DNA of 16,738 bases, taken from Candidatus Cryosericum sp. (GTDB lineage: Bacteria; Caldisericota; Caldisericia; Cryosericales; Cryosericaceae). Of this stretch, positions 413 through 16,415 are shown piece after piece; position 1 is the stretch's first letter, and each line of letters begins with the position of its first letter. Under the pieces are notes generated by a model. It was not told the DNA's origin, searched no databases, and saw only the letters and a program-made list of their open reading frames with translations. Where the stretch lies: positions 1 through 16,738 of the forward strand of contig JBNAWM010000024.1 of assembly GCA_049699855.1 (NCBI GenBank), in the 5' to 3' direction. The translations under genes and the position numbers were made by a program.

Positions 413-440
413 AAAAGAGCCCCGCCTTGCGGCGGGGCTC
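413..440 (-). terminator. Intrinsic terminator downstream of osmC-like gene 1
   Basis: Minus strand GAGCCCCGCC-GCAA-GGCGGGGCTC-TTTT: 10-bp stem, GNRA loop, U tract. Lies between convergent genes. Confidence 0.85.
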
Positions 441-467
441 CAGCATGCCGTCTTCGAAAGGATTGCC

Positions 468-917
468 TTACTTCTCGATCACGATGGTGGCCGGCTTGAG
501 ACTGACACCCTTACCAAGCGAATCGCCCACCGGGCAGCGGCCCTCAATGAACTTCTGGAAAGCCTCGACCTTGTCCTTGGGAGCATCCGTCTTGATGTGC
601 ATGGTGAAGCGGACTTCCTGGTAGCCCGGCCGAACATTGGGATCGCCCTTGAGGAAACCATCAGTGTCGAGGTCGCCCTCGAGCTCAACCCAGAACTCCT
701 TGAGGTCAATGCCCTGAGACTGCGCAAACGCTGCAGCAACGATACACTGGCAGGAGCCCAGCGCGGCGAGCAGTCCCTCGACGGGATTCATCCCCTTGTC
801 GGTTCCTCCAAGAGACGGGGGCTCATCCATGACAATCTTGAAACCACGAGACTCACTCTCGACAGCCAAACCTCCGGGAATCTTGCGAGTAACATTCTTG
901 AACGTTGTCAGTGCCAT
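468..917 (-). CDS. OsmC/Ohr-family protein (paralog 1)
   Basis: DEPPSLGGTDKGMNPVEGLLAALGSC (Cys56) and RCPV (Cys128) motifs; RBS GGAGG upstream. Confidence 0.92.
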   Translation of the reverse strand: MALTTFKNVTRKIPGGLAVESESRGFKIVMDEPPSLGGTDKGMNPVEGLLAALGSCQCIVAAAFAQSQGIDLKEFWVELEGDLDTDGFLKGDPNVRPGYQEVRFTMHIKTDAPKDKVEAFQKFIEGRCPVGDSLGKGVSLKPATIVIEK

Positions 918-970
918 TTCTACACCTCCATGTAGGTTGGTGCGGGATCCTCTCCCGCCTCACACCCTCA

Positions 971-1022
971 AGCATAGTCAACGGCAGCAGACTTCACGAA
1001 CACTCTGTGAATTTGTTCACAA
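971..1022 (-). promoter_or_regulatory. Promoter module with Rex/CRP-type palindrome upstream of osmC-like gene 1
   Basis: -10-like TATGCT (976-971); GTGAAG (997-992) only 15 bp away; palindrome cTGTGAAtttgTTCACAA at 1005-1022, one mismatch to the Rex consensus TTGTGAA-N4-TTCACAA. Confidence 0.7.
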
Positions 1023-1088
1023 GTTCCTTCATTGTCAGACCTGTTGGACACACTCCAGTGATTCTCAGCTATCGTGATGACTGCAACA

Positions 1089-1118
1089 AGAGGGCTCCTC
1101 CTCTCGGCGGGGCCCTCT
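1089..1118 (-). terminator. Probable terminator hairpin between the two osmC-like genes
   Basis: AGAGGGC...GCCCTCT stem with an imperfect extension, followed on the minus strand by TGTT (weak U tract). Confidence 0.55.
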
Positions 1119-1144
1119 CAGGTGAACTTTGATGATGAAGTCAG

Positions 1145-1594
1145 CTATCTCTCCAGCACAACATCCGCAGGCACGCCCGCGACGCCATTGACCAGCGAAC
1201 TATCAACAGGGCAGCGGCTCTCCACGAATTTCTGGAACTCCTCGACCTTGTCCTCGGGGGCGTCGGTCTTGATGTGCACCTTCAAACGGATCTGCTGGAA
1301 TCCAACGGGCACACCAGGTGCGCCTTTCATGAATCCTGCAGGGTCCAGATCCCCTTCTACCTCGACCCAGTAATCCTTCAGGTCCATTCCCTGGAATTTG
1401 GCAAACGCTGCGGCGGTGACAACCTGGCAGGAACCCAGTGCCACCAGCAGGCCTTCAACCGGACTCATCCCTGTATCCGTGCCACCCATCGAGGGCGGCT
1501 CATCCATCGTGATCTTGAAGCCATGGGATTCGCTCTCTACGGCGAGTCCCCCCGTTCCCTTGCGTGAAACAGCCTTGAACGTTACCAATGCCAT
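1145..1594 (-). CDS. OsmC/Ohr-family protein (paralog 2)
   Basis: Same motifs (DEPPSMGG, LGSC, RCPV). 149 aa, gap-free alignment to paralog 1 with about 101/149 identities by hand count. RBS GGAGG. Confidence 0.92.
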   Translation of the reverse strand: MALVTFKAVSRKGTGGLAVESESHGFKITMDEPPSMGGTDTGMSPVEGLLVALGSCQVVTAAAFAKFQGMDLKDYWVEVEGDLDPAGFMKGAPGVPVGFQQIRLKVHIKTDAPEDKVEEFQKFVESRCPVDSSLVNGVAGVPADVVLER

Positions 1595-1646
1595 GTTGGC
1601 ACCTCCACTTTTGTCCTGAGACGGGAGAATCTCCCGCTACGTTGAT

Positions 1647-1703
1647 AGCATAGTTGCAACAACTAGAAACTTCAAGGATAAGAGAACGTGAGTTTCTTCA
1701 CAT
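1647..1703 (-). promoter_or_regulatory. Sigma70-type promoter plus Rex/CRP-type box upstream of osmC-like gene 2
   Basis: TTGAAG (1675-1670)-17 bp-TATGCT (1652-1647); box acGTGAgtttcTTCACAt at 1686-1703. Confidence 0.7.
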
Positions 1704-1756
1704 TGTCAAGCCATGTCGCTTGTCATGATTCGGCCTGACGTTCGGCCCCCAATGAA

Positions 1757-1783
1757 CAAGGGAAGGCATGGCGCCTTCCCTTG
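1757..1783 (-). terminator. Terminator of the sulfur-relay operon
   Basis: Perfect 11-bp stem CAAGGGAAGGC/GCCTTCCCTTG about 25 bp after the dsrH-like stop, followed by TTCATT on the minus strand. Confidence 0.7.
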
Positions 1784-1807
1784 GTGGCTGCTGTCTCCCG
1801 CTTTCGC

Positions 1808-2086
1808 TCAGGAAATGACTCTCTCGTTCTGCTCGGTGATCTCGGCGAACCCATCGTAATCAACCAATGGAATCTGGCTCTCCTCGGGCGTGAACCCCCG
1901 GGCAAGATAGTCTTCCTTGAGGGCGACCAGCTTCACGCCTTGCGGTACCTGAGCCTTGAGGCTCTCGTCAGCTGCAAACAGGGTACCGTCCTGGATGAAT
2001 GCAACGGTGTCTCCCTCCATCGCCAGCTTTAGCAATTCGTGAGTAATCGTGTGCGCAGCACTCTTCTTCACTATGATCAATGCCAT
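1808..2086 (-). CDS. DsrH/TusB-family sulfur relay subunit
   Basis: 92 aa; GDTVAFIQDG, ALKEDYLARG and VDYDGFAEIT match DsrH/TusB; follows DsrE- and DsrF-like genes. Confidence 0.85.
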   Translation of the reverse strand: MALIIVKKSAAHTITHELLKLAMEGDTVAFIQDGTLFAADESLKAQVPQGVKLVALKEDYLARGFTPEESQIPLVDYDGFAEITEQNERVIS

Positions 2087-2095
2087 CGGAGCCTC

Positions 2096-2455
2096 CTAGA
2101 AGAAAATGACCGTGTCAAACGAATGGACAAGCGCTGGAAGTTCCGCCTCAGTCGTCTTTGTGAGATTCCAGTGCGGTTCCATCTCGTTGTCCTTGACGCC
2201 ATATTTCGCAAGGTCCTCTGCCGTCGCATAGATCTGCGTCTGGTACTTCTCGATGTACTTGAACGTGATCGACAGGGGAAGGCATCCGACGCCCTCGGGC
2301 TTGCAGTTCGCGTGGACAGCCAGCACCGCCTCATCCTTGAAGAGAACGGCAGGCTCCAGATCCTGCCCGTACATGCCAAACGCACTTCGGAACGCTTCAT
2401 TGATCCAGATGCTTCCTGCTGGTGAACTGTAGACGACAAATAGCACTTTTTTCAT
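2096..2455 (-). CDS. DsrF/TusC-family sulfur relay subunit
   Basis: 119 aa; KKVLFVVYSSPAGS...EAFR...VLFKDEAVL...EDLAKYG...FDTVIFF pattern; position between DsrE- and DsrH-like genes. Confidence 0.82.
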   Translation of the reverse strand: MKKVLFVVYSSPAGSIWINEAFRSAFGMYGQDLEPAVLFKDEAVLAVHANCKPEGVGCLPLSITFKYIEKYQTQIYATAEDLAKYGVKDNEMEPHWNLTKTTEAELPALVHSFDTVIFF

Positions 2456-2465
2456 AGTGTGCCCC

Positions 2466-2819
2466 CTACGGCATGAGGTTGATGTATCTGTCGGAGTTGT
2501 AGATGAGTGCTGCCATCTCAGGCACTCCGGAGAACACCGTGCCGTTCGAATTCATTCCGGGAAGAAGGCCCCGGTACTCTGCGCACAGCCCGCAGATGTT
2601 GATTTCGGCACCCTTTGCCGCAAGCTCTTCCATCATCACCGGCAGGTTCCGGTCGATCCTCATGGGCTTGATGTTCTTGTTGACTGCGAGAATCGAGTCC
2701 GAGAAAAGGAAGATGGAAACCTTGTGCCCTCTTCGGAGAAATGCCTCTGCCATGTGGATGGCGGTATCCACGTCTTGATTGGTGTATGGGGCAACGTTCA
2801 CCTGAATTGTGATATGCAT
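2466..2819 (-). CDS. DsrE/TusD-family sulfurtransferase subunit
   Basis: 117 aa; APY, GHKVSIFLFSDSI and ICGLCAEYRG (active-site Cys motif). Confidence 0.88.
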   Translation of the reverse strand: MHITIQVNVAPYTNQDVDTAIHMAEAFLRRGHKVSIFLFSDSILAVNKNIKPMRIDRNLPVMMEELAAKGAEINICGLCAEYRGLLPGMNSNGTVFSGVPEMAALIYNSDRYINLMP

Positions 2820-2828
2820 GGAGTACTC

Positions 2829-3848
2829 CTACTTCTCGCGCTGGAAGAGCCACCACACCATGGCCCAGTTGCCCAGTACGAAGAAAGTGGTTGCCAGGAT
2901 AGAGCCAACCGCAAGATGTGGAAGTCCAGAAAGGACATGGCCAATGTTGCAACCCTGAGCCACGCCTGCGCCAAATCCCATGAAAATACCACCGAGCGCC
3001 ACCTTGAGGAAGGTTTTGGGATCCTTGGGCAGTCTCATCTTAAACTCTTTCGAGATCAGCGCAGCTATGAATGCACCTACGACAATTCCCAGGACTTCCA
3101 TTCCCAGCCAGTTGTAGGGAACCGGCTTGGTGGGATCAAGATTTGCCGTAGTGGTTCTGAACAGGTTGATCCATCCACCCGTAATGCCCAGCGCGTAGGT
3201 CTTCTGCGAAAGGTAGGCAATGATGCCTACAACACCGACGGCGATTCCGCCCCATTTCCAATCAAGCCCCGTGACCTTCCTCTCCGTCGTCTTCGTGAAC
3301 ACAACAACAGCAAGCAGCAGAGCGGCGAAGATGAGTGCGATGATCCATGGATTGATGTTCAGCCAATTTGCAAGGGTGAGATTCACTGCCCCGTCCTTGG
3401 CCGTGTAGAATCCACCGGGGTTGTTGGTTGTGGTGATTGCCTTTCCAAACCACTTGTTGACAAAGTTGAGTGGACCGCCCCTTACCGCGGCTGCAGTCAC
3501 GCCAAAAAAGATTGCTGCAACAAAAGCCGTGACGTAGCCTTCACCAATTCTGTAGGTGATACCGCTGGCGCAGCCCCCTGCCAGCACCATGCCCATGCCA
3601 AAGATGAACCCGCCGATGATGTCCGCCAGCGGGATAAACGGCAGCGGGCTGAGTTTGATCCATCCAAACTGCGCTGCGGCCTGGAACCCAATCGTCTCGA
3701 CCAGGATGGCGACAAGTGCCATCTTGAGCAGATAGTTGTCCTTGGTCAGCTTGATATCACGAAATGCCGAGTTGAAGCACAGTCTGGATCGTTGCAGTAC
3801 CACACCAAACAGAATTCCGACCAGCAGTCCCTGGACTATTGAACTCAT
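2829..3848 (-). CDS. YeeE/YedE (TsuA-like) sulfur-compound/thiosulfate transporter
   Basis: Multi-pass membrane protein with the three characteristic Cys motifs QRSRLCF, LAGGCASG and AQGCNIGH. Confidence 0.92.
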   Translation of the reverse strand: MSSIVQGLLVGILFGVVLQRSRLCFNSAFRDIKLTKDNYLLKMALVAILVETIGFQAAAQFGWIKLSPLPFIPLADIIGGFIFGMGMVLAGGCASGITYRIGEGYVTAFVAAIFFGVTAAAVRGGPLNFVNKWFGKAITTTNNPGGFYTAKDGAVNLTLANWLNINPWIIALIFAALLLAVVVFTKTTERKVTGLDWKWGGIAVGVVGIIAYLSQKTYALGITGGWINLFRTTTANLDPTKPVPYNWLGMEVLGIVVGAFIAALISKEFKMRLPKDPKTFLKVALGGIFMGFGAGVAQGCNIGHVLSGLPHLAVGSILATTFFVLGNWAMVWWLFQREK

Positions 3849-3873
3849 TTCCTTCCTCCCTGGATTTGATTGG

Positions 3874-4113
3874 TTACAGTTTCTTGATCAAAACACGCCA
3901 CTCACTTGGTCCGCTATCCTCGATGGACAGTACTTCTCCTCCGACGTCCTTGACGCCCGCCGGGATCCTCTCCTTGGAGAGCGCATAATCGATGAGGACC
4001 TCAAGGATTTCTCCCGACTTCATGGTCTTGAGCTTTCTCCGCGTATCTACATCCGGAATGGGGCATACCTCGCCGCGTTCGTCAATGGTGCAGGTTGGCT
4101 TGATCTCTTCCAT
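3874..4113 (-). CDS. TusA/SirA/YeeD-family sulfurtransferase
   Basis: Start moved to ATG 4113 behind RBS AGGAGG; 79 aa; IDERGEVCPIP motif (CPxP). Confidence 0.92.
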   Translation of the reverse strand: MEEIKPTCTIDERGEVCPIPDVDTRRKLKTMKSGEILEVLIDYALSKERIPAGVKDVGGEVLSIEDSGPSEWRVLIKKL

Positions 4114-4171
4114 GTTGAAACCTCCTGTTCTGGATTTGTCACTGCGTGGTGCTTCTCTCATACAACCGACG

Positions 4172-4558
4172 TTATGCTGATGCTTCCCCTTTCCCTGCTG
4201 TTTCCCTCTGAGCAACCACCTCCCTGATCTTCTGTACCGCCTGCTCCGTATTCAGATTCCTGATCTCGATCCCCACATGCTTGTCCCGGCCAAATCCTAC
4301 GCTGTCAAACGCGTCCCGGTACATTTTCCGCTGCATGGTGGGATCGCAGGCGGCAACGTACAGCTCATCGATCTCAGCTCCGCGAAGCAACTCCCTCAGA
4401 TACCTGTCTCCATCGTCGGAACAGAGCTGAGGGTGAACACCCACCCAGTCAAACACATCGTCTCCCCTCAGGGCATTGAGAACCCCAAAGGTATCCATCG
4501 CTTGAAACGACGGGCATGTTCCCTGGCATACACACAGGAGCAATCCTTTCTTTGTCAT
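4172..4558 (-). CDS. Small Cys-rich protein resembling the N-terminal Fe-S domain of heterodisulfide reductase HdrA
   Basis: Start ATG 4558 with RBS GAGGAG; 128 aa. LLLCVCQGTC...HPQLCSDDG...LYVAACDP...IEIRN parallels the HdrA N-domain pattern VxxCxCG...LCSxxG...VVAACSP...NIRE. Confidence 0.7.
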   Translation of the reverse strand: MTKKGLLLCVCQGTCPSFQAMDTFGVLNALRGDDVFDWVGVHPQLCSDDGDRYLRELLRGAEIDELYVAACDPTMQRKMYRDAFDSVGFGRDKHVGIEIRNLNTEQAVQKIREVVAQRETAGKGEASA

Positions 4559-4560
4559 GT

Positions 4561-4770
4561 CTATCTCCTCTTGTCTCCAAAATAGCTGATTGCGTCGTTG
4601 TCGCAGATCTTGGAACATCCTCTGCAAAACTGGACGCAGTTGACCGGATGGACAACCTCCGGAAACGCCTCCACACCAATGGTGTAGACGTCGTGCGGAC
4701 AAAAATTAACGCATTCGTGGCACTTGAGACACTTTCCCTGATCGATCACGGGATACCAACCTGCTGCCAT
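4561..4770 (-). CDS. 2x[4Fe-4S] ferredoxin-like protein
   Basis: Start ATG 4770 behind AAGGAG; CLKCHECVNFCP and CVQFCRGCSKIC motifs; 69 aa. Confidence 0.9.
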   Translation of the reverse strand: MAAGWYPVIDQGKCLKCHECVNFCPHDVYTIGVEAFPEVVHPVNCVQFCRGCSKICDNDAISYFGDKRR

Positions 4771-4771
4771 G

Positions 4772-5113
4772 TCATTCACTCCTTTCACTGTTCTGGATTT
4801 TCTTCAACACGTCTGCAACTCTTGCGACGGGGATTTCCCGAAGTGCTATGCCCCGTTGGAGAAGAGCGCGGGTTACTGCTTCATTCTCAATGGACCCGAC
4901 TACCAGCATTTCTGCACCAGTTGATGCCAGGACCTGCGCGACTTCTTCGCCATCGAGCACCGCGCCGGCGGTAAAGGCATTTTCGAGGTTGGTGACCTTC
5001 TTGAGACGTTCGCCTTCCAGCTCGACAACAGTGAAGTACGCTGATTGGGCAATCGTCGCGCCAAGATCGCTGTTCAGGCCCAGATGATTCTTCGATGCAA
5101 AGGCGATGATCAT
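4772..5113 (-). CDS. NifB/NifX (dinitrogenase FeMo-cofactor binding) family protein
   Basis: MIIAFAS...SAYFTVVELEG...LEN...LASTGAEMLVVGSI...LLQRGI pattern; 113 aa. Confidence 0.75.
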   Translation of the reverse strand: MIIAFASKNHLGLNSDLGATIAQSAYFTVVELEGERLKKVTNLENAFTAGAVLDGEEVAQVLASTGAEMLVVGSIENEAVTRALLQRGIALREIPVARVADVLKKIQNSERSE

Positions 5114-5169
5114 CCTGCCACCTTCATCGCGCCTTTCGCGCCGTGGAGCATACAGCTGTTCAATCTCAT
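5110..5169 (-). CDS. Putative 19-aa leader peptide MRLNSCMLHGAKGAMKVAG
   Basis: RBS AGGAG upstream of ATG 5169; its TGA overlaps the ATG of the NifX-like gene (ATGA). Confidence 0.4.
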   Translation of the reverse strand: MRLNSCMLHGAKGAMKVAG

Positions 5170-5220
5170 TTCACCACTCCTGTTCTCGGATGAGACGGGA
5201 TTCGGCTCCGTCGTGCTATA

Positions 5221-5315
5221 ATCCTAGTTGCAGTACATGGAAACTTCAAGCAGCATATTCTGTTAATTCATTCACAATCACATCGCCATTATATATAATT
5301 GTCTCCATCATGCAA
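5221..5315 (-). promoter_or_regulatory. Promoter(s) and Rex/CRP-type box of the sulfur-relay operon
   Basis: TTGAAG (5249-5244)-17-TAGGAT (5226-5221); box cTGTtAAttcaTTCACAA at 5260-5277; second candidate promoter TTGCAT (5315-5310)-16-TATAAT (5293-5288). Confidence 0.7.
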
Positions 5316-5321
5316 CCTTCG

Positions 5322-5351
5322 TTGACATGTTCCCATTCAAGTCCATACTGT
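5322..5351 (+). promoter_or_regulatory. Sigma70-type promoter of the DEAD-box helicase
   Basis: TTGACA at 5322-5327, then CATACT (16-bp spacer) or TACTGT (18-bp spacer). Confidence 0.6.
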
Positions 5352-5544
5352 ACCGTCTTAAAGGTCCGTGCACAGGGAAACAGACGATTGGGATTCATCC
5401 CGGTCGAACGCTCACTGTCGATGTCTCACAGCATGGGTCCACTAGCACTCGCCACACCCGTGCGGCGACATCCGACATAAGAAAGAGCCGCCTGCTGACT
5501 GTCTGAGAGCGTCATCCTGTCGAGCGCCGGCACAAGGAGCTCAC

Positions 5545-6861
5545 GTGACTTTTGATTCATTTCATCTCGACCCCCGCCTCACTGCGGGTATTGCTTCATG
5601 CGGTTACACCACACCCACGCCCATCCAGGAACAGGGCATTCCGCCCGTGATGGAAGGCCGTGACGTTATGGGCCTGGCGCAGACCGGAACTGGCAAGACT
5701 GCCGCCTACGCGCTCCCCATTATGGAGCGTCTCCTGAAGGGCCCGCATGGTTCCCTCCGCGCTCTTGTCCTGGCCCCGACACGGGAACTGGCCGAGCAGA
5801 TCGCCAGCGACTTCCGCACCCTGGGCCGCAAGGCCCGCCTCTCCGTGCTCACGATCTACGGTGGCGTCGGCATCAATCCACAGATTGACACGCTCCGGCG
5901 CGGCGTGGACATCGTCATTGCCTGCCCGGGCCGCCTCCTCGACCACATCAACCAGGGCACGGTCGACCTCACGAAGATCCAGATCATGGTCCTCGACGAG
6001 GCCGACATGATGCTGGACATGGGCTTTCTGCCCGATGTCCGCCGCATCATAGGAAACCTGCCGGGCCAACGCCAGAACTTGCTCTTCAGTGCGACCATGC
6101 CTGAGGATATCCGCCATCTGGCCGATGCAATCCTGCATGACCCTGTGACGGTCCAGATCGGCCATTCAGCCCCGGTGGAAACGGTTTCACACGCGCTCTA
6201 CCCGGTGCCACAGCACCTGAAGACCCCTCTGCTCATCGAGCTGTTGAAGCACACCGATACGGAATCCGTCCTCATCTTCACCCGTACCAAGCATCGCGCC
6301 AAGAAGCTTGGCGAGAAGCTGGCCAATGAGGGCTACCGTGCAACGTCACTGCAGGGCAACCTGTCACAGCGCGCACGACAGGCAGCACTGGGCGGCTTCC
6401 GCGATGGCAGCTACAAGGTGTTGGTCGCGACCGACATTGCAGCCCGTGGCATCGATGTCACCCAGATCTCCCATGTCATCAACTATGACATCCCCGATAC
6501 GACGGATGCCTATACGCACCGCATTGGGCGAACCGGCCGCGCCCTGCATTCAGGAGACGCCTTCACCCTTGTCACTGAAGAGGACACGATGCTGGTCCGC
6601 GATATCGAAAAGGTACTGGGAACTCCTATCGAACGGCGCACCCTCAGCGGCTTTGACTACAAGGCACCGGCACCAAAGCGGGAAACGGAGTTCGCCTGGG
6701 ATCACAGACCCGAGGTACGATCCGGCAGACCCCAGCGCTCCGGAACAGCCGATACACGCCCCGCTTCGGGGGTACGGCATCATGAAAACAGCGTGAATGC
6801 ATCAAAAAGCTCGAACCATCGCTCAGTGACAAGAAAAGCCGCAAATATCCGAACCTCTTGA
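5545..6861 (+). CDS. DEAD-box ATP-dependent RNA helicase, RhlE-like
   Basis: Q motif, AQTGTGKT, PTRELA, LDEAD, SAT, ARGID, HRIGRTGR; basic disordered C-terminal tail; GTG start with AAGGAG RBS. Confidence 0.97.
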   Translation: MTFDSFHLDPRLTAGIASCGYTTPTPIQEQGIPPVMEGRDVMGLAQTGTGKTAAYALPIMERLLKGPHGSLRALVLAPTRELAEQIASDFRTLGRKARLSVLTIYGGVGINPQIDTLRRGVDIVIACPGRLLDHINQGTVDLTKIQIMVLDEADMMLDMGFLPDVRRIIGNLPGQRQNLLFSATMPEDIRHLADAILHDPVTVQIGHSAPVETVSHALYPVPQHLKTPLLIELLKHTDTESVLIFTRTKHRAKKLGEKLANEGYRATSLQGNLSQRARQAALGGFRDGSYKVLVATDIAARGIDVTQISHVINYDIPDTTDAYTHRIGRTGRALHSGDAFTLVTEEDTMLVRDIEKVLGTPIERRTLSGFDYKAPAPKRETEFAWDHRPEVRSGRPQRSGTADTRPASGVRHHENSVNASKSSNHRSVTRKAANIRTS

Positions 6862-9906: not shown

Positions 9907-10017
9907 CGTACGCCGGAATGCCTGCAAAGCGCTCCACATAGCCATTCGCGGTCCTGCCGCTGGTGCATCCCGCATAAGATGTGCGGGTACCCACAATCCG
10001 AAAGGCAGGAGGCACAC

Positions 10018-10206
10018 ATGACCGTTCAGGAACAGCCCGGAACGATTCGCATCACCTTCGTCAGCAAGAAGGGCGAAACGCTTTCCAACATCAACCCGGC
10101 CGCCACAGACGCCGACGCGTACACATGCGCCGAAGCCCTCATGGCACTGCTGACCGAGCAGACGTCCACCATCGTTCGCAACAGACGCTCCAGTTTCGCG
10201 GAGTAA
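10018..10206 (+). CDS. DUF1659-like small protein
   Basis: ATG 10018 behind AGGAGG; TLSNINPAATDADAY..AEAL pattern; adjacent to a DUF2922-like gene. Confidence 0.72.
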   Translation: MTVQEQPGTIRITFVSKKGETLSNINPAATDADAYTCAEALMALLTEQTSTIVRNRRSSFAE

Positions 10207-10217
10207 GGAGGTAACCT

Positions 10218-10448
10218 ATGGCTACTACGCAGACCACGGTTCTTCGTCTCGTCTTTGACACCGAAACGCCCGGCAAGACCACCACGATGGAATTCAACAG
10301 CCCCCGCTCCGACCTGACCGAAGCTCTCATCCGCCCGGTGATGCAGAGTTTCATCGATGCTCATCTCGTCAGCGGACCAAATGGCCTTGTCACTGGCGTC
10401 CACAGTGCCGGTATCGTCTCCCGGCTCGTCACAGACGTCATCGCCTAG
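10218..10448 (+). CDS. DUF2922-like small protein
   Basis: RBS AAGGAGG; LRLVFDT..GKTTTM...PRSDLT...I..VM..FI pattern. Confidence 0.78.
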   Translation: MATTQTTVLRLVFDTETPGKTTTMEFNSPRSDLTEALIRPVMQSFIDAHLVSGPNGLVTGVHSAGIVSRLVTDVIA

Positions 10449-13638: not shown

Positions 13639-14997
13639 CTACTTCGGCTCCAGAATTTGGAGCATGGTGATGCCCTTTGGTTCTGATGGCTCACGCTTCC
13701 CGGAAAAGTAATCCAGACCATACTTCCAGATTCCAAAACGTGTTGCACTCTTGAAGGCAAAGACGACGATGCCGCCAACGTTGTAAAACTTGTTCTCCTT
13801 GAAAGAGAAGAAGAGCTTCTGTGGTCCTTCTGTTCCGTACATGATGCCGGACGTCAGGAGGGTCAAATCATGAAGGCGACCGATCGACTCATTCCACGGG
13901 ACACGAGCAACGACACGCAGGGTGTGCTCCGATGGGGTGAACAACCACAGGTCTGCATAGGGTGAGTCTGTTGGTGATTCCCATGGCCGGTCGAGCATGG
14001 ATGCCGTTGAGCCTTCATGAATCAATAAGATATGCTTGCCATCTGCCCAGCTGGCAGACAGCGGGCTATCTGCGATGAATGTCTCCAGTGTTCCTGATAC
14101 GAGATCCACGCGAATCAGACTGACGCTGCCCGTTCGGTTCCCCTGTGGCGTCAACCCTGTTGCCTTCTCCTGGCGAATCCACAGACCACTTCCCTCCTGC
14201 ATCAGTGGTAACCAGTTAACGTCCTGAGCAGTAGCAACCACGCGTGCCTGACCCGTTGGTAACTTGCATTGCAAAAGGACAGCAAGGTGTGGCCCGCTCC
14301 ACCCCCCGGTAGTAACGACCGTAAAGGCTGTTCCGTCATCGTCGAGCAGTATCCAGTTAATGTCATCCAATACCTGCTGCGATGGATCTTTATCGCTATT
14401 AGGGAGACGAGGCAAGCGCTCTGAATCTCCCCACTGAAACGACCTTCCCGTTGCAAGGTCATATGCCCACAAAGCGACCGTCTTATGCCCGTTAGCGGCC
14501 TTCATGATGGATCCCCAGACGCAGTACTGATCCGACAGGGCAAACGGCTGGTCTCCTGATGGGCGATACTCGTTGGGACCAAAAGCATTCGAGCGTCCTA
14601 TGTCAGCGACTTTGTGCACCGTGCCATTCTCTACGCGGTACAGAGCGTGACCATCTGGATTCCCGCCAGGTTGTCCCTGACAGTCACCCAAGGCCCAGCC
14701 GGTTCCGTTCAGGTACTGGATGTAGACTCCATCAGGAACAGCGATCTCCTGCTTGACCCATGATGCCGGGTAATCCCGTTGGGTCAACTGGTACGGAACA
14801 AGGGTTGCAGGAGGATCGGGGGCGATTGCCGGCCGATCCCATTGCACCGTGATTCCATCCGGTTTCAGCTGTCGAACGAGGTCTGCAACGTAGGCTGGCT
14901 GCTGCTGCGAAACCGAGACACTGCACCCGGCGAGCAGCATACCGGTCAATGCCAGGGCTACTATGCAGCTGATGTGCCTGATCCATGGTTGATTCAT
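13639..14997 (-). CDS. Hypothetical lipoprotein, probably beta-rich/propeller-like
   Basis: Signal peptide with lipobox LLAG-C; recurring segments LWAYDLATG, LIRVDLVSG and LWLFTPSE resembling propeller blades. Confidence 0.8.
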   Translation of the reverse strand: MNQPWIRHISCIVALALTGMLLAGCSVSVSQQQPAYVADLVRQLKPDGITVQWDRPAIAPDPPATLVPYQLTQRDYPASWVKQEIAVPDGVYIQYLNGTGWALGDCQGQPGGNPDGHALYRVENGTVHKVADIGRSNAFGPNEYRPSGDQPFALSDQYCVWGSIMKAANGHKTVALWAYDLATGRSFQWGDSERLPRLPNSDKDPSQQVLDDINWILLDDDGTAFTVVTTGGWSGPHLAVLLQCKLPTGQARVVATAQDVNWLPLMQEGSGLWIRQEKATGLTPQGNRTGSVSLIRVDLVSGTLETFIADSPLSASWADGKHILLIHEGSTASMLDRPWESPTDSPYADLWLFTPSEHTLRVVARVPWNESIGRLHDLTLLTSGIMYGTEGPQKLFFSFKENKFYNVGGIVVFAFKSATRFGIWKYGLDYFSGKREPSEPKGITMLQILEPK

Positions 14998-15003
14998 ATC
15001 TGT

Positions 15004-16263
15004 TTAGAAGTTACGTACCAGGTAGCCTGTGTTGTAGATCAGGAGATGAGCCACAACTGCTGCGTCAAGTGGTCTTGGACCACCGGTCTGTTCGAATTGG
15101 CCAGTTGCAGGATCAGTGTAACTATTCTGGTTCCAAGGGTCAATGTAGGAAATCCAGTGGCGATTGCTCGCATCAAGCTGGACGCCATATTCGACAATGA
15201 AGTGTTGGTGAGGCGTCCAATCCCATCCCCAAAGACGTTGGTCCCGTCCCCATGCGTCTTGTTTGTGAGTGCCATTAGCGTTCAGCCGCTCATCACAAGT
15301 GTAGACGCCGGTGATCGTTCCACTGTTATTGGTGATGTTAAACCTAATGCTGTTGTACAGCCACGTGGTCGCCGTTGTTTCGTCAGAGCTGGTACTGATA
15401 GGATCACGCGTCCAATGCATCTTGGGCGGGTACCCATAAGTGTTCAGGAACGTCACAATGCGATCAGAGCTTGTGCCGGCAGTCGGAGTAGCCCCTTCCC
15501 CATGGGTGTTGATGAAAGTCTGCGTGTACTTCGAGTTCGATCCTGTGAAGCCCCAATCATAATCCAGGATCATCTGTGTTGATGCGGGGCCACAGTAGTA
15601 ACCGTTCTCCTGAATGCGGTACGGAATGTTAAGAGCGAGAGTCTCCGAGGCGACCGACTGCAGACCAGATGCTTTGCCCAATGGCCCGTCGATCCATTTT
15701 CCACCGTCAGGTTGTGAAGCCAACCACTTCTGCTCCGCCTGAAGGTCTTGCAGAAGATCCTTCTGTTCCTGCATGCTCAGCCAGAAATCTGGGCGGTCGG
15801 GGCTGTCGCCATCCCCAGTGCTGGAAACACGAGATTTATCCCAGCCGACAGGGAGCGGATTGCCGACTCGCTCGGACGCAGGAGCACCCCCTCGTACTGG
15901 AGATCTGAGCCATCCACGAGCTTCCAGCGCTTGCTGTTCGGCGGGACTCATAACAAGCCATTGTCGGGCCGTAATGCCTCGCTCGTACAGATCGTGCTGC
16001 TCGTCTGACGTCAGCCATCGCTCTGATGATGCACTCTGCTGATTGGTAGCCATCTGCTGGTCTGTTGGTCGGCCTATGAAGGCATACAGCTTCTGCAACT
16101 GATCTGTTGTCATCCAGCGCTCAGGGACGACTGTAAGAGCAGTGCCAGTCTGCTCTGCGCTTGCCAGTGTCTCTGCCCCTACAGAGATACTGCGATCAAA
16201 CACTCCTACCATAAAGACAGCGATCAAGACAACAATTACACCCTTGCGGGTCATTTTCTTCAT
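15004..16263 (-). CDS. Secreted C39-like (papain-fold) peptidase with N-terminal repeats
   Basis: ATG 16263 behind GAGGAG; signal peptide MKKMTRKGVIVVLIAVFMVG; IPYRIQENGYYCGPAS (Gln, Cys), HFIVEYG (His), YIDPW (Asp). Confidence 0.85.
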   Translation of the reverse strand: MKKMTRKGVIVVLIAVFMVGVFDRSISVGAETLASAEQTGTALTVVPERWMTTDQLQKLYAFIGRPTDQQMATNQQSASSERWLTSDEQHDLYERGITARQWLVMSPAEQQALEARGWLRSPVRGGAPASERVGNPLPVGWDKSRVSSTGDGDSPDRPDFWLSMQEQKDLLQDLQAEQKWLASQPDGGKWIDGPLGKASGLQSVASETLALNIPYRIQENGYYCGPASTQMILDYDWGFTGSNSKYTQTFINTHGEGATPTAGTSSDRIVTFLNTYGYPPKMHWTRDPISTSSDETTATTWLYNSIRFNITNNSGTITGVYTCDERLNANGTHKQDAWGRDQRLWGWDWTPHQHFIVEYGVQLDASNRHWISYIDPWNQNSYTDPATGQFEQTGGPRPLDAAVVAHLLIYNTGYLVRNF

Positions 16264-16415
16264 ACCTTTTCTCCTCTCCCCATATCTTGGTTCAATCCTC
16301 AACGTTTACCTCTGAACAATTGAGAGCCGCCGCATTCCCCGGCAGTGAGATTCACGTTCTTCGCTGTTACTGTCTATGCACTCATGACTTGTGCCTCCTC
16401 TCACCAGCAACTTAC

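Follow-up and report, generated by a model that had tools for sequence, protein, structure and literature searches.

The stretch of DNA analyzed here, hereafter the window (16,738 nt of a Candidatus Cryosericum sp. genome, contig JBNAWM010000024.1), carries at positions 468 to 5,315 a ten-gene cluster that very likely consists of three separable modules: a tusA-yeeE-dsrEFH sulfur relay, a nifX-ferredoxin-hdrAN (nifX-fdx-hdrAN) cassette encoding a stand-alone HdrA N-terminal-domain (HdrA-N) protein, and two Ohr-like (OsmC family) paralogs. The locus is more likely a co-regulated redox gene cluster than a single new pathway, and places an already known, thiosulfate-responsive relay in a setting that is new and confined to one lineage. 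Our leading proposal, which we regard as evenly balanced, is that under excess NADH the five-gene relay would import thiosulfate and an NADH-linked reductase encoded elsewhere would take the sulfane sulfur, providing an electron sink; as the main role of the unit, a reductive sink is slightly favored.

Layout of the cluster

Eight minus-strand genes run from 5113 to 1808 in the order nifX-like, ferredoxin, HdrA-N, tusA, yeeE, dsrE, dsrF and dsrH, with gaps of 1, 2, 58, 25, 9, 10 and 9 nt, and two osmC-like genes follow dsrH, each behind its own promoter. Pfam assignments for the ten are, in order, Nitro_FeMo-Co, Fer4, none (HdrA-N), TusA, Sulf_transp, DsrE, DsrE, DsrH, OsmC and OsmC. This arrangement, which the original prediction had described from the sequence, is borne out by a near relative whose 51-kb contig (from run X2) covers positions 321-1024 and 1179-5600 (338 letters differ in about 5,130) and includes the complete set of ten genes, with about 93% nucleotide identity. 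The hdrAN-tusA-yeeE junction is also present at two other loci, L103 and L099; since X2, L103 and L099 share it, an assembly artefact can be ruled out as the source of the layout.

Thiosulfate import and sulfur relay

The five-gene unit comprises the following genes:

3874..4113, minus strand: TusA/YeeD-type sulfur carrier (CPIP motif, Cys17; PF01206, 68.1)
2829..3848, minus strand: predicted YeeE/TsuA thiosulfate transporter (NF052577, 453.8 bits against a cut-off of 400; PF04143, 272.7)
2466..2819, minus strand: DsrE/TusD-like subunit (C76 matches the active-site cysteine of DsrE; C79 completes a CxxC)
2096..2455, minus strand: DsrF/TusC-like subunit (profile matches)
1808..2086, minus strand: DsrH/TusB-like subunit (profile matches)

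The TsuA profile and the retained cysteines support the putative function proposed for this unit at the outset, thiosulfate import followed by a TusA/DsrEFH relay. In an alignment to 6LEO, YeeE residues C24, C93 and C300 match the relay cysteines C22, C91 and C293 of Spirochaeta thermophila YeeE (StYeeE). TusA is yeeE-adjacent and has the CPxP cysteine, as TusA/YeeD carriers do; its closest solved structures are TM0983 (1JDQ), its best PDB match, and S. thermophila YeeD (StYeeD), and it falls below the cut-off of the E. coli-type TsuB model NF041048 (24.5 vs 147.5). The three adjoining subunits, with the DsrE active-site cysteine, form a DsrEFH/TusBCD set, although DsrE and DsrF score below the TusD and TusC equivalog cut-offs; the CxxC of DsrE (C76/C79) is kept in 33/33 homologues matched. 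A selenium-related YedE/YedF role was rejected, as the genome has no SelD and the YedE/YedF model cut-offs were not reached.

Genome-wide searches covered a 1.63-Mb assembly that is 97.9% complete. TusE/DsrC gave 0 matches at E<=1, DsrAB and the sulfite-reductase family (NIR_SIR domain) were not found in the genome, and mnmA lies on another contig. The absence of these genes from the locus, noted in the original prediction, thus extends to the whole genome for the first two, and no such partner explains DsrEFH. Since DsrC was likewise not detected over the cut-off in 23/23 other carriers tested, its absence appears to be a family trait.

The system had been put forward as a candidate undescribed one, but a unit corresponding to its sulfur core, with the same five genes in the same order, is already in print for Thermotoga maritima, where yeeE and dsrE/tusA homologues are reported to form one transcription unit and thiosulfate to raise yeeE 42.6-fold, with nsr and mbxA also up (PMC9431562). 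Both organisms lack DsrC and carry, elsewhere in the genome, MBS/MBX and a CoA-disulfide reductase (CoADR)/NSR-family NAD(P)H flavoprotein. Unlike the T. maritima unit, the block here has no upstream box of its own, sits behind nifX-fdx-hdrAN and is not followed by an ArsR-TusA fusion or lipoyl genes. The TsuA/TsuB systems of E. coli and S. thermophila, in which StYeeE is reported to transport and StYeeD to decompose thiosulfate (PMC11073785), resemble the locus, whose YeeE passes the spirochaete-type TsuA cut-off, in their relay and CPxP cysteines; the locus has in addition a DsrEFH-like trimer and Rex-type boxes, and beyond assimilation it may serve a reductive role. With the TusBCD-TusE-MnmA and DsrEFH-DsrC-DsrAB relays it shares the three-subunit set and DsrE cysteine, and by its published description the DsrEFH type II/YTD cluster (PMC13293266) is similarly syntenic with tusA and yeeE; it differs from these relays in lacking DsrC/TusE and DsrAB, and its DsrE has a CxxC as in YchN.

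The unit itself is conserved. Among 41 YeeE loci (from 11/12 other Caldisericota carriers, 19/37 Thermotogota carriers, 3/3 Bacillota carriers and 8/28 metagenome loci), tblastn found all four partners at 37, and the five genes kept the same order at 20/20 loci compared (19 Thermotogota).

A shared promoter module with Rex-type boxes

The regulatory features are predicted as follows:

5260..5277, strand unassigned: Rex-type box heading the eight-gene unit (2 mismatches; identical in L103)
5221..5249, minus strand: predicted promoter of the shared module, TTGAAG-17-TAGGAT (alignment)
1647..1703, minus strand: second promoter copy, TTGAAG-17-TATGCT (alignment)
1686..1703, minus strand: degenerate Rex-type box in the second copy (4 mismatches, counted by eye)
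971..1022, minus strand: third promoter copy, with a Rex-type box at 1005-1022 (1 mismatch)

Homologous promoter copies of about 120 nt each precede the leader open reading frame (ORF) of nifX, osmC1 and osmC2; 0/1000 shuffles reached the alignment score in each of the three pairs, and all three also align with osmC promoters of five related records. The promoter module first seen before the two osmC genes is therefore real, though not confined to them, as the copy upstream of nifX is equally homologous. Each copy holds an 18-bp box resembling the Rex operator consensus TTGTGAANNNNTTCACAA quoted in PMC6391272 (mismatches were scored against TTGTGAA-N4-TTCACAA); the co-regulation predicted at the outset is supported. 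The box at 1005-1022 is the best match in the whole assembly, and the locus holds two of the eight assembly-wide sites with <=2 mismatches; window shuffles give an expectation of 0.06 such boxes against the 2 observed.

The genome encodes two Rex proteins, and both elements of a Rex regulon, the 18-bp operator and a rex gene, are present. Elsewhere in the genome, boxes like these stand upstream of central redox genes, including that for aldehyde:ferredoxin oxidoreductase; the other box-bearing genes we take to be redox genes from their N-termini. Beyond this genome, a box with <=3 mismatches lies 10-130 nt upstream of tusA in 19/38 other loci, some of them kin and thus not independent (0.6 expected; one further locus was too short), and rex lies directly 3' of dsrH in G010 and G011. 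No CRP/FNR domain exceeded the cut-off in the genome; a regulator of this type was rejected as the box binder, the sole match being sub-threshold and inside a 617-amino-acid (aa) frame. Taken together, it is probable that Rex controls the locus, releasing these putative operators at high NADH. Two observations count against this: about 10 nt separate the boxes from the predicted -35 downstream of them, a position that is no typical proof of repression, and several relatives have a degenerate right half-site. A sigma-70 scan, which performed at chance level, missed all three minus-strand promoters. The Rex regulon study of Ravcheev et al. 2012 may already list the Thermotoga unit as Rex-controlled.

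Several further observations concern Rex and its sites. The box at 5260..5277 overlaps the -35 of a predicted divergent plus-strand promoter (5271-5299) facing a DEAD-box helicase gene (5545-6861), which may therefore share control. The second Rex paralog (G000:C12:63-4570) lies downstream of genes that, judging from sequence, are presumably formate-dehydrogenase-like and formate/nitrite-channel-like. A palindromic Rex-type box at G000:C59:882 is nearly identical to the pre-tusA box of G038 and G051 and precedes a different gene. Three Bacillota carriers (L127, L128, L148) have weaker Rex-type boxes and a divergent LysR regulator gene upstream of tusA, and in L069, L070 and L063 rex, followed by a gene whose N-terminus we take to be acetate-kinase-like, stands directly 3' of dsrH, or convergent after the gene for dihydrolipoyl dehydrogenase (DLD).

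The nifX-fdx-hdrAN cassette and the Ohr-like proteins

The remaining genes of the cluster are these:

5110..5169, minus strand: 19-codon ORF with its own ribosome-binding site (stop overlaps the nifX ATG; relatives have osmC there)
4772..5113, minus strand: NifX/NifB-like protein, 113 aa, no cysteine (PF02579, 31.7 bits)
4561..4770, minus strand: 2x[4Fe-4S]-type ferredoxin, 69 aa, 8 invariant Cys
4172..4558, minus strand: solo HdrA-N protein, 128 aa (weak NCBIfam HdrA matches, residues 3-104)
1145..1594, minus strand: Ohr-like (OsmC family) protein 1, C56/C128 (PF02566)
468..917, minus strand: Ohr-like (OsmC family) protein 2, C56/C58/C128 (OsmC Pfam match)

The HdrA-N label given originally holds: the NCBIfam matches, though weak, agree with the predicted structure (mean predicted local distance difference test score 90.9), whose top seven Foldseek matches are HdrA chains (PDB 7BKD, 8RVU, 5ODC; template modelling score 0.67-0.77). 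Residues C9, C11, C46 and C71 align with HdrA cysteines that bind a [4Fe-4S] cluster in that protein. In contrast to HdrA, this is a stand-alone protein without the FAD/thioredoxin-reductase-like body of the full-length enzyme, it is encoded beside a separate ferredoxin, and it has a fifth cysteine, C15, invariant in 50/50 aligned sequences (50 of 120 listed matches). The query finds only itself in the host genome; its closest named homologues, at 75-80%, come from Caldiserica and Ca. Cryosericum records with the same promoter and gene order. The solo family numbers at least 169 clusters within the 70-224 aa searched. Its 50 de-duplicated other loci (7 duplicates or frameshifted loci dropped; 26 spanning only about 3.3 kb or less) have a ferredoxin within 400 nt in 48 cases, an ArsR-like gene, which the family usually follows, within 1.2 kb in 31, and ArsP/Acr3/TDT-like transporter genes within 3.5 kb in 16. 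By contrast with the ferredoxin, the constant partner of HdrA-N, nifX (7/50) is a dispensable part of the cassette; osmC occurs in 5/50. The only yeeE within 1.5 kb belongs to the near relative L103 (1/50), and no dsr gene lies within 7 kb in any of the 50.

The Ohr-like proteins are 68% identical and keep the catalytic cysteine pair C56/C128 of the Ohr/OsmC family. No Ohr or OsmC subfamily model matched at E<=0.01, and the only PDB matches were 2OPL and 1LQL. Ohr/OsmC proteins are reported to reduce hydroperoxides using lipoylated proteins (PMC5384416; bioRxiv 10.64898/2026.10.01.755906). The third, "Ohr-like" group described in PMC5384416 likewise has the two-cysteine pair and can take electrons from lipoylated H and L proteins; the paralogs here, putative peroxidases, differ in matching no subfamily model. 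By analogy, these proteins might draw on the same lipoyl pool as that considered below for the sulfur relay. Among the YeeE loci, just one (L138) has an adjoining OsmC-like match (22%).

Modular architecture and origin

The original prediction treated the ten genes as one conserved system and named beforehand the gene-neighbourhood comparison that could overturn it; the combination proved for the most part not conserved. Across 93 genomes of the phylum, YeeE occurs in 13, solo HdrA-N in 18 (two further weak matches are 811-aa frames) and both in 2, which is about chance level. In the second genome with both (G051) they lie on different contigs, and 11/12 other YeeE-positive genomes of the phylum have no HdrA-N match. 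Among 101 Thermotogota genomes, with carrier counts of 16 and 37 for the two genes, 11 hold both, none within 30 kb and the nearest 37 kb apart. The nifX-fdx-hdrAN cassette adjoins tusA only in this narrow lineage.

Not all the evidence favors full separation. The 11 shared Thermotogota genomes compare with about 6 expected under independence, and two unrelated loci (L016 and L110) hold HdrA-N and YeeE 4-5 kb apart. The L016 YeeE, 4 kb from HdrA-N, is of a distant type; L110, the sole case among the 41 YeeE loci, is a metagenome contig whose opposite strand, 4.7 kb from tusA-yeeE-dsrE, carries hdrAN together with ferredoxin and arsR-like genes. The Thermotogota excess and L016 favor some looser functional link.

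Relatives display the modules apart. Five named Caldiserica-type records (L005-L009) read promoter-osmC-(nifX)-fdx-hdrAN without tusA, and in G038 and G051 the tusA-yeeE-dsrEFH block is preceded by a Rex-type box of its own. In G037 and G056 a single osmC-like gene is divergent from the DEAD helicase gene, and no member of the eight-gene unit was detected in the interval. The same applies to X7, a near relative lacking the intervening block, whose record 13 joins 794 to 5362. Record 21 of X9, on a short, low-depth contig, joins 1835 to 4240, bringing hdrAN straight to the dsrH-osmC1 spacer. The 19-codon ORF, matched by a short ORF at the same position in L103, is probably an osmC remnant. From these sequences we infer as the simplest history that the osmC promoter unit was duplicated, that one osmC decayed to the 19-codon ORF, and that the five-gene block was inserted behind hdrAN and therefore stayed under the same regulator.

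The GC content of the locus is 0.51-0.58; the genome as a whole has 0.58, and three flanking genes have 0.60-0.61. A recent foreign origin was considered and rejected: the GC contrast is not decisive, and a quick tree of YeeE plus DsrEFH groups the window with two same-genus genomes (Shimodaira-Hasegawa-like approximate likelihood ratio test, 99).

Fate of the relayed sulfur

The sequence itself shows the limits of the modules, the homology of the promoters, their boxes, the Rex genes, the catalytic cysteines and the lack of DsrC; Rex action and the sulfur route are our proposal. As an electron sink, the system would operate as follows. Rex would bind the boxes and let go at high NADH. YeeE would import thiosulfate (or another sulfane species) via its cysteine relay to TusA Cys17, which would take the sulfane sulfur and hand it over to DsrE Cys76. 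Without DsrC/TusE, an NADH-linked dithiol system encoded elsewhere would reduce the sulfur to sulfide, most likely lipoyl-GcvH recharged by DLD, or an 830-aa CoADR-rhodanese-TusA-DsrE2 fusion. An MBS-type complex may serve as a ferredoxin-linked polysulfide sink, and the outcome would be disposal of excess reductant in a fermenter. The ferredoxin and HdrA-N would make up a separate Fe-S module for electron transfer, and the Ohr-like proteins would be thiol peroxidase-like enzymes, both with the regulator in common but not the sulfur. The earlier suggestion of ferredoxin-linked persulfide reduction as an electron sink is thus retained for the sink, now the leading idea, but it is unlikely that HdrA-N or OsmC is the terminal acceptor.

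The host encodes the candidates. The 830-aa fusion (G000:C10:20681-23173), a candidate NADH:persulfide reductase by its sequence, is preceded by no more than a Rex half-site. An MbsL homologue (6U8Y_L, E 6.5e-115) stands beside Mrp-type antiporter genes at G000:C29:2307-10500, which by sequence encode an MBS/MBX-type complex; 6U8Y is the sulfane reductase MBS (PMC7684303). One GcvH with the lipoyl lysine sits in a gcv cluster, the DLD gene is split over two contig ends, and a lipoate-ligase family protein and NfnAB-like genes are present. No 2-oxoacid dehydrogenase E2 was found in the genome, which leaves GcvH as the sole lipoyl carrier detected. With the CoADR fusion, lipoyl genes and MbsL homologue, both NADH-linked and ferredoxin-linked sulfane sinks are encoded outside the locus.

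What follows dsrH elsewhere points to lipoyl proteins. A lipoyl-system gene (DLD, GcvH or lipoate ligase) lies on the same strand within 3.5 kb after dsrH at 22/35 loci; these 35 of the 41 exclude four with <1.5 kb downstream and two without a dsrH match, representatives were confirmed, and L101 and L102 are near duplicates among kin that are not independent. Gene orders vary, the link occurs on both main branches of the quick tree, and hdrAN is in no case among the conserved genes downstream of dsrH. Because a second GcvH is present in 7/9 genomes with a dsrH-linked GcvH (beside gcvP in 5 of those), the linked copy often looks dedicated; the lipoyl lysine motif is kept in 8/9 examined, and three have no cysteine at all. 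A comparable tie of TusA and DsrE carriers to a lipoyl carrier and DLD is described for sHdr-LbpA (PMC6067878, PMC4175335). Unlike that system, the cluster has no Hdr-like complex, the proposed direction is reductive, the host lipoyl genes are unlinked, and the dsrH-linked GcvH paralogs lack LbpA's conserved cysteine pair. No hdr-like cluster with lbpA lies in the window (HdrB/C were not searched genome-wide).

Other arrangements also follow dsrH. L138 (5874-6461) and similar Thermotogota loci have an ArsR-TusA fusion gene directly 3' of dsrH, possibly a sulfane-sensing regulator; L065, L066 and L067 have one run of arsR-like, five-gene unit, small thioredoxin-like ORF, Cys-rich ORF, lipoate ligase and NfnAB-like genes.

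A number of points weigh against the lipoyl route and against a pure sink. Lipoyl neighbours are missing at 13/35 loci and from the vicinity of dsrH in the host genome, G038 and G051 (whose contig stops 739 nt 3' of dsrH), the host's single GcvH sits in the gcv cluster, and DLD and GcvH also serve glycine cleavage, a system present in 24/24 genomes. Fervidobacterium yedE/dsrE/tusA genes are reported to rise with suf under sulfur limitation (PMC8085985; see also PMC13157175), thiosulfate is described as a sulfur nutrient for T. maritima (PMC5168592), and the host has a CysK-like gene.

The main rival is accordingly sulfur assimilation, which we consider possible though distinctly less probable: the unit would feed cysteine synthesis, Fe-S/pterin cofactor assembly or MnmA tRNA thiolation, with the other modules as co-regulated neighbours. 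Besides the Fervidobacterium induction, it draws on the assimilatory role of YeeE/YeeD in E. coli (PMC11073785), on T. maritima growth limited by low thiosulfate without detectable sulfide (PMC5168592), and on the host's MnmA, its two cysteine desulfurases and, close to one of these, a CysK-like protein (329.7 bits against a cut-off of 344). However, the Rex-type boxes and rex adjacency indicate redox rather than sulfur-starvation control, the 42.6-fold response in T. maritima was to added thiosulfate (PMC9431562), and dsrH is followed by DLD, GcvH or ligase genes, with no recurrent cys, suf or lipA in ORF listings inspected by eye. LipA is absent from the host genome and present in only 3/23 other carriers, which weakens "sulfur for lipoate synthesis"; supply to LipA was rejected on these counts, in a search that did not extend to LipS1/S2. 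Assimilatory and sink roles are not mutually exclusive.

A fused operon acting as one pathway, in which ferredoxin reduces the HdrA-N cluster and the fifth cysteine cleaves the DsrE/TusA persulfide, or OsmC is the acceptor, seems improbable. In its favor, the single transcription unit is kept in at least three other near-relative contigs (L099, L103, X2), Cys15 is invariant beyond the four HdrA-type cysteines, no lipoyl genes adjoin dsrH here, and there is the loose association seen in L016, L110 and Thermotogota. Yet HdrA-N elsewhere keeps company with ArsR-like genes rather than yeeE or dsr, most YeeE-positive genomes of the phylum lack it, and the osmC genes have their own promoters and a counterpart at a single YeeE locus. 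In a specific form of this idea, to which we give equally little weight, solo HdrA-N would be a minimal ferredoxin-driven persulfide/disulfide reductase recruited in place of lipoyl/DLD genes, giving a thiosulfate-to-sulfide route; by analogy with ferredoxin:thioredoxin reductase, it may pair a four-cysteine Fe-S cluster with a redox-active fifth cysteine. If true, the route would be DsrC-, Hdr- and quinone-free and run by four proteins of <130 aa.

Least probable is oxidant or metalloid defence, with the relay, next to Ohr-like peroxidases and the ArsR-type Fdx/HdrA-N cassette, supplying sulfide/persulfide for detoxification or Fe-S repair and the boxes binding another TGTGA-N6-TCACA regulator: transporters near Fdx/HdrA-N (16/50 loci) and hydroperoxide reduction by Ohr/OsmC proteins (PMC5384416) fit it, but the locus has no arsR or efflux gene, CRP/FNR domains were not detected over the cut-off in the genome, and similar boxes precede central redox genes.

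Other features of the window

Three hairpins or terminators follow genes of the cluster:

1757..1783, minus strand: possible terminator hairpin 3' of dsrH (11 bp)
1089..1118, minus strand: hairpin 3' of osmC1, possible terminator
416..441, minus strand: intrinsic terminator 3' of osmC2 (terminator scan)

The terminator originally proposed to end the eight-gene unit corresponds to the hairpin after dsrH, a possible terminator that has no U-tract and a z of -1.3 and was missed by the scanner. Hairpins in 5' untranslated regions were no better than shuffled sequence, an Rfam search gave no structured-RNA match at the locus, and a wide VIA-align search returned generic alpha/beta folds only (best Z 8.7). 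Elsewhere, a DUF1659 and DUF2922 gene pair (9979-10448, plus strand) is convergent with a PilT-like ATPase gene, and at 13639-16302 a 452-aa lipoprotein-like ORF without a Pfam match stands beside a secreted C39-like peptidase gene.

Significance

Our literature search, made mostly without subscription papers, found none on the ten-gene cluster or on a lipoyl-linked reductive role of the five-gene unit, and none on the solo HdrA-N family, which was not searched by its own name. The reduction of thiosulfate to sulfide in Thermotogales and Thermoanaerobacter without Phs or Dsr is described as only partly explained (PMC9431562). The locus extends the five-gene unit to a further phylum and brings out two family-wide traits, the Rex-type boxes and the association with lipoyl proteins, which lend themselves to testing in cultured, tractable species. 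The ten-gene combination is a local rearrangement whose chief use is to illustrate how modules can collect behind a single duplicated promoter. The Fdx/HdrA-N pair, an Fe-S module that is widespread but uncharacterised, deserves study in its own right.

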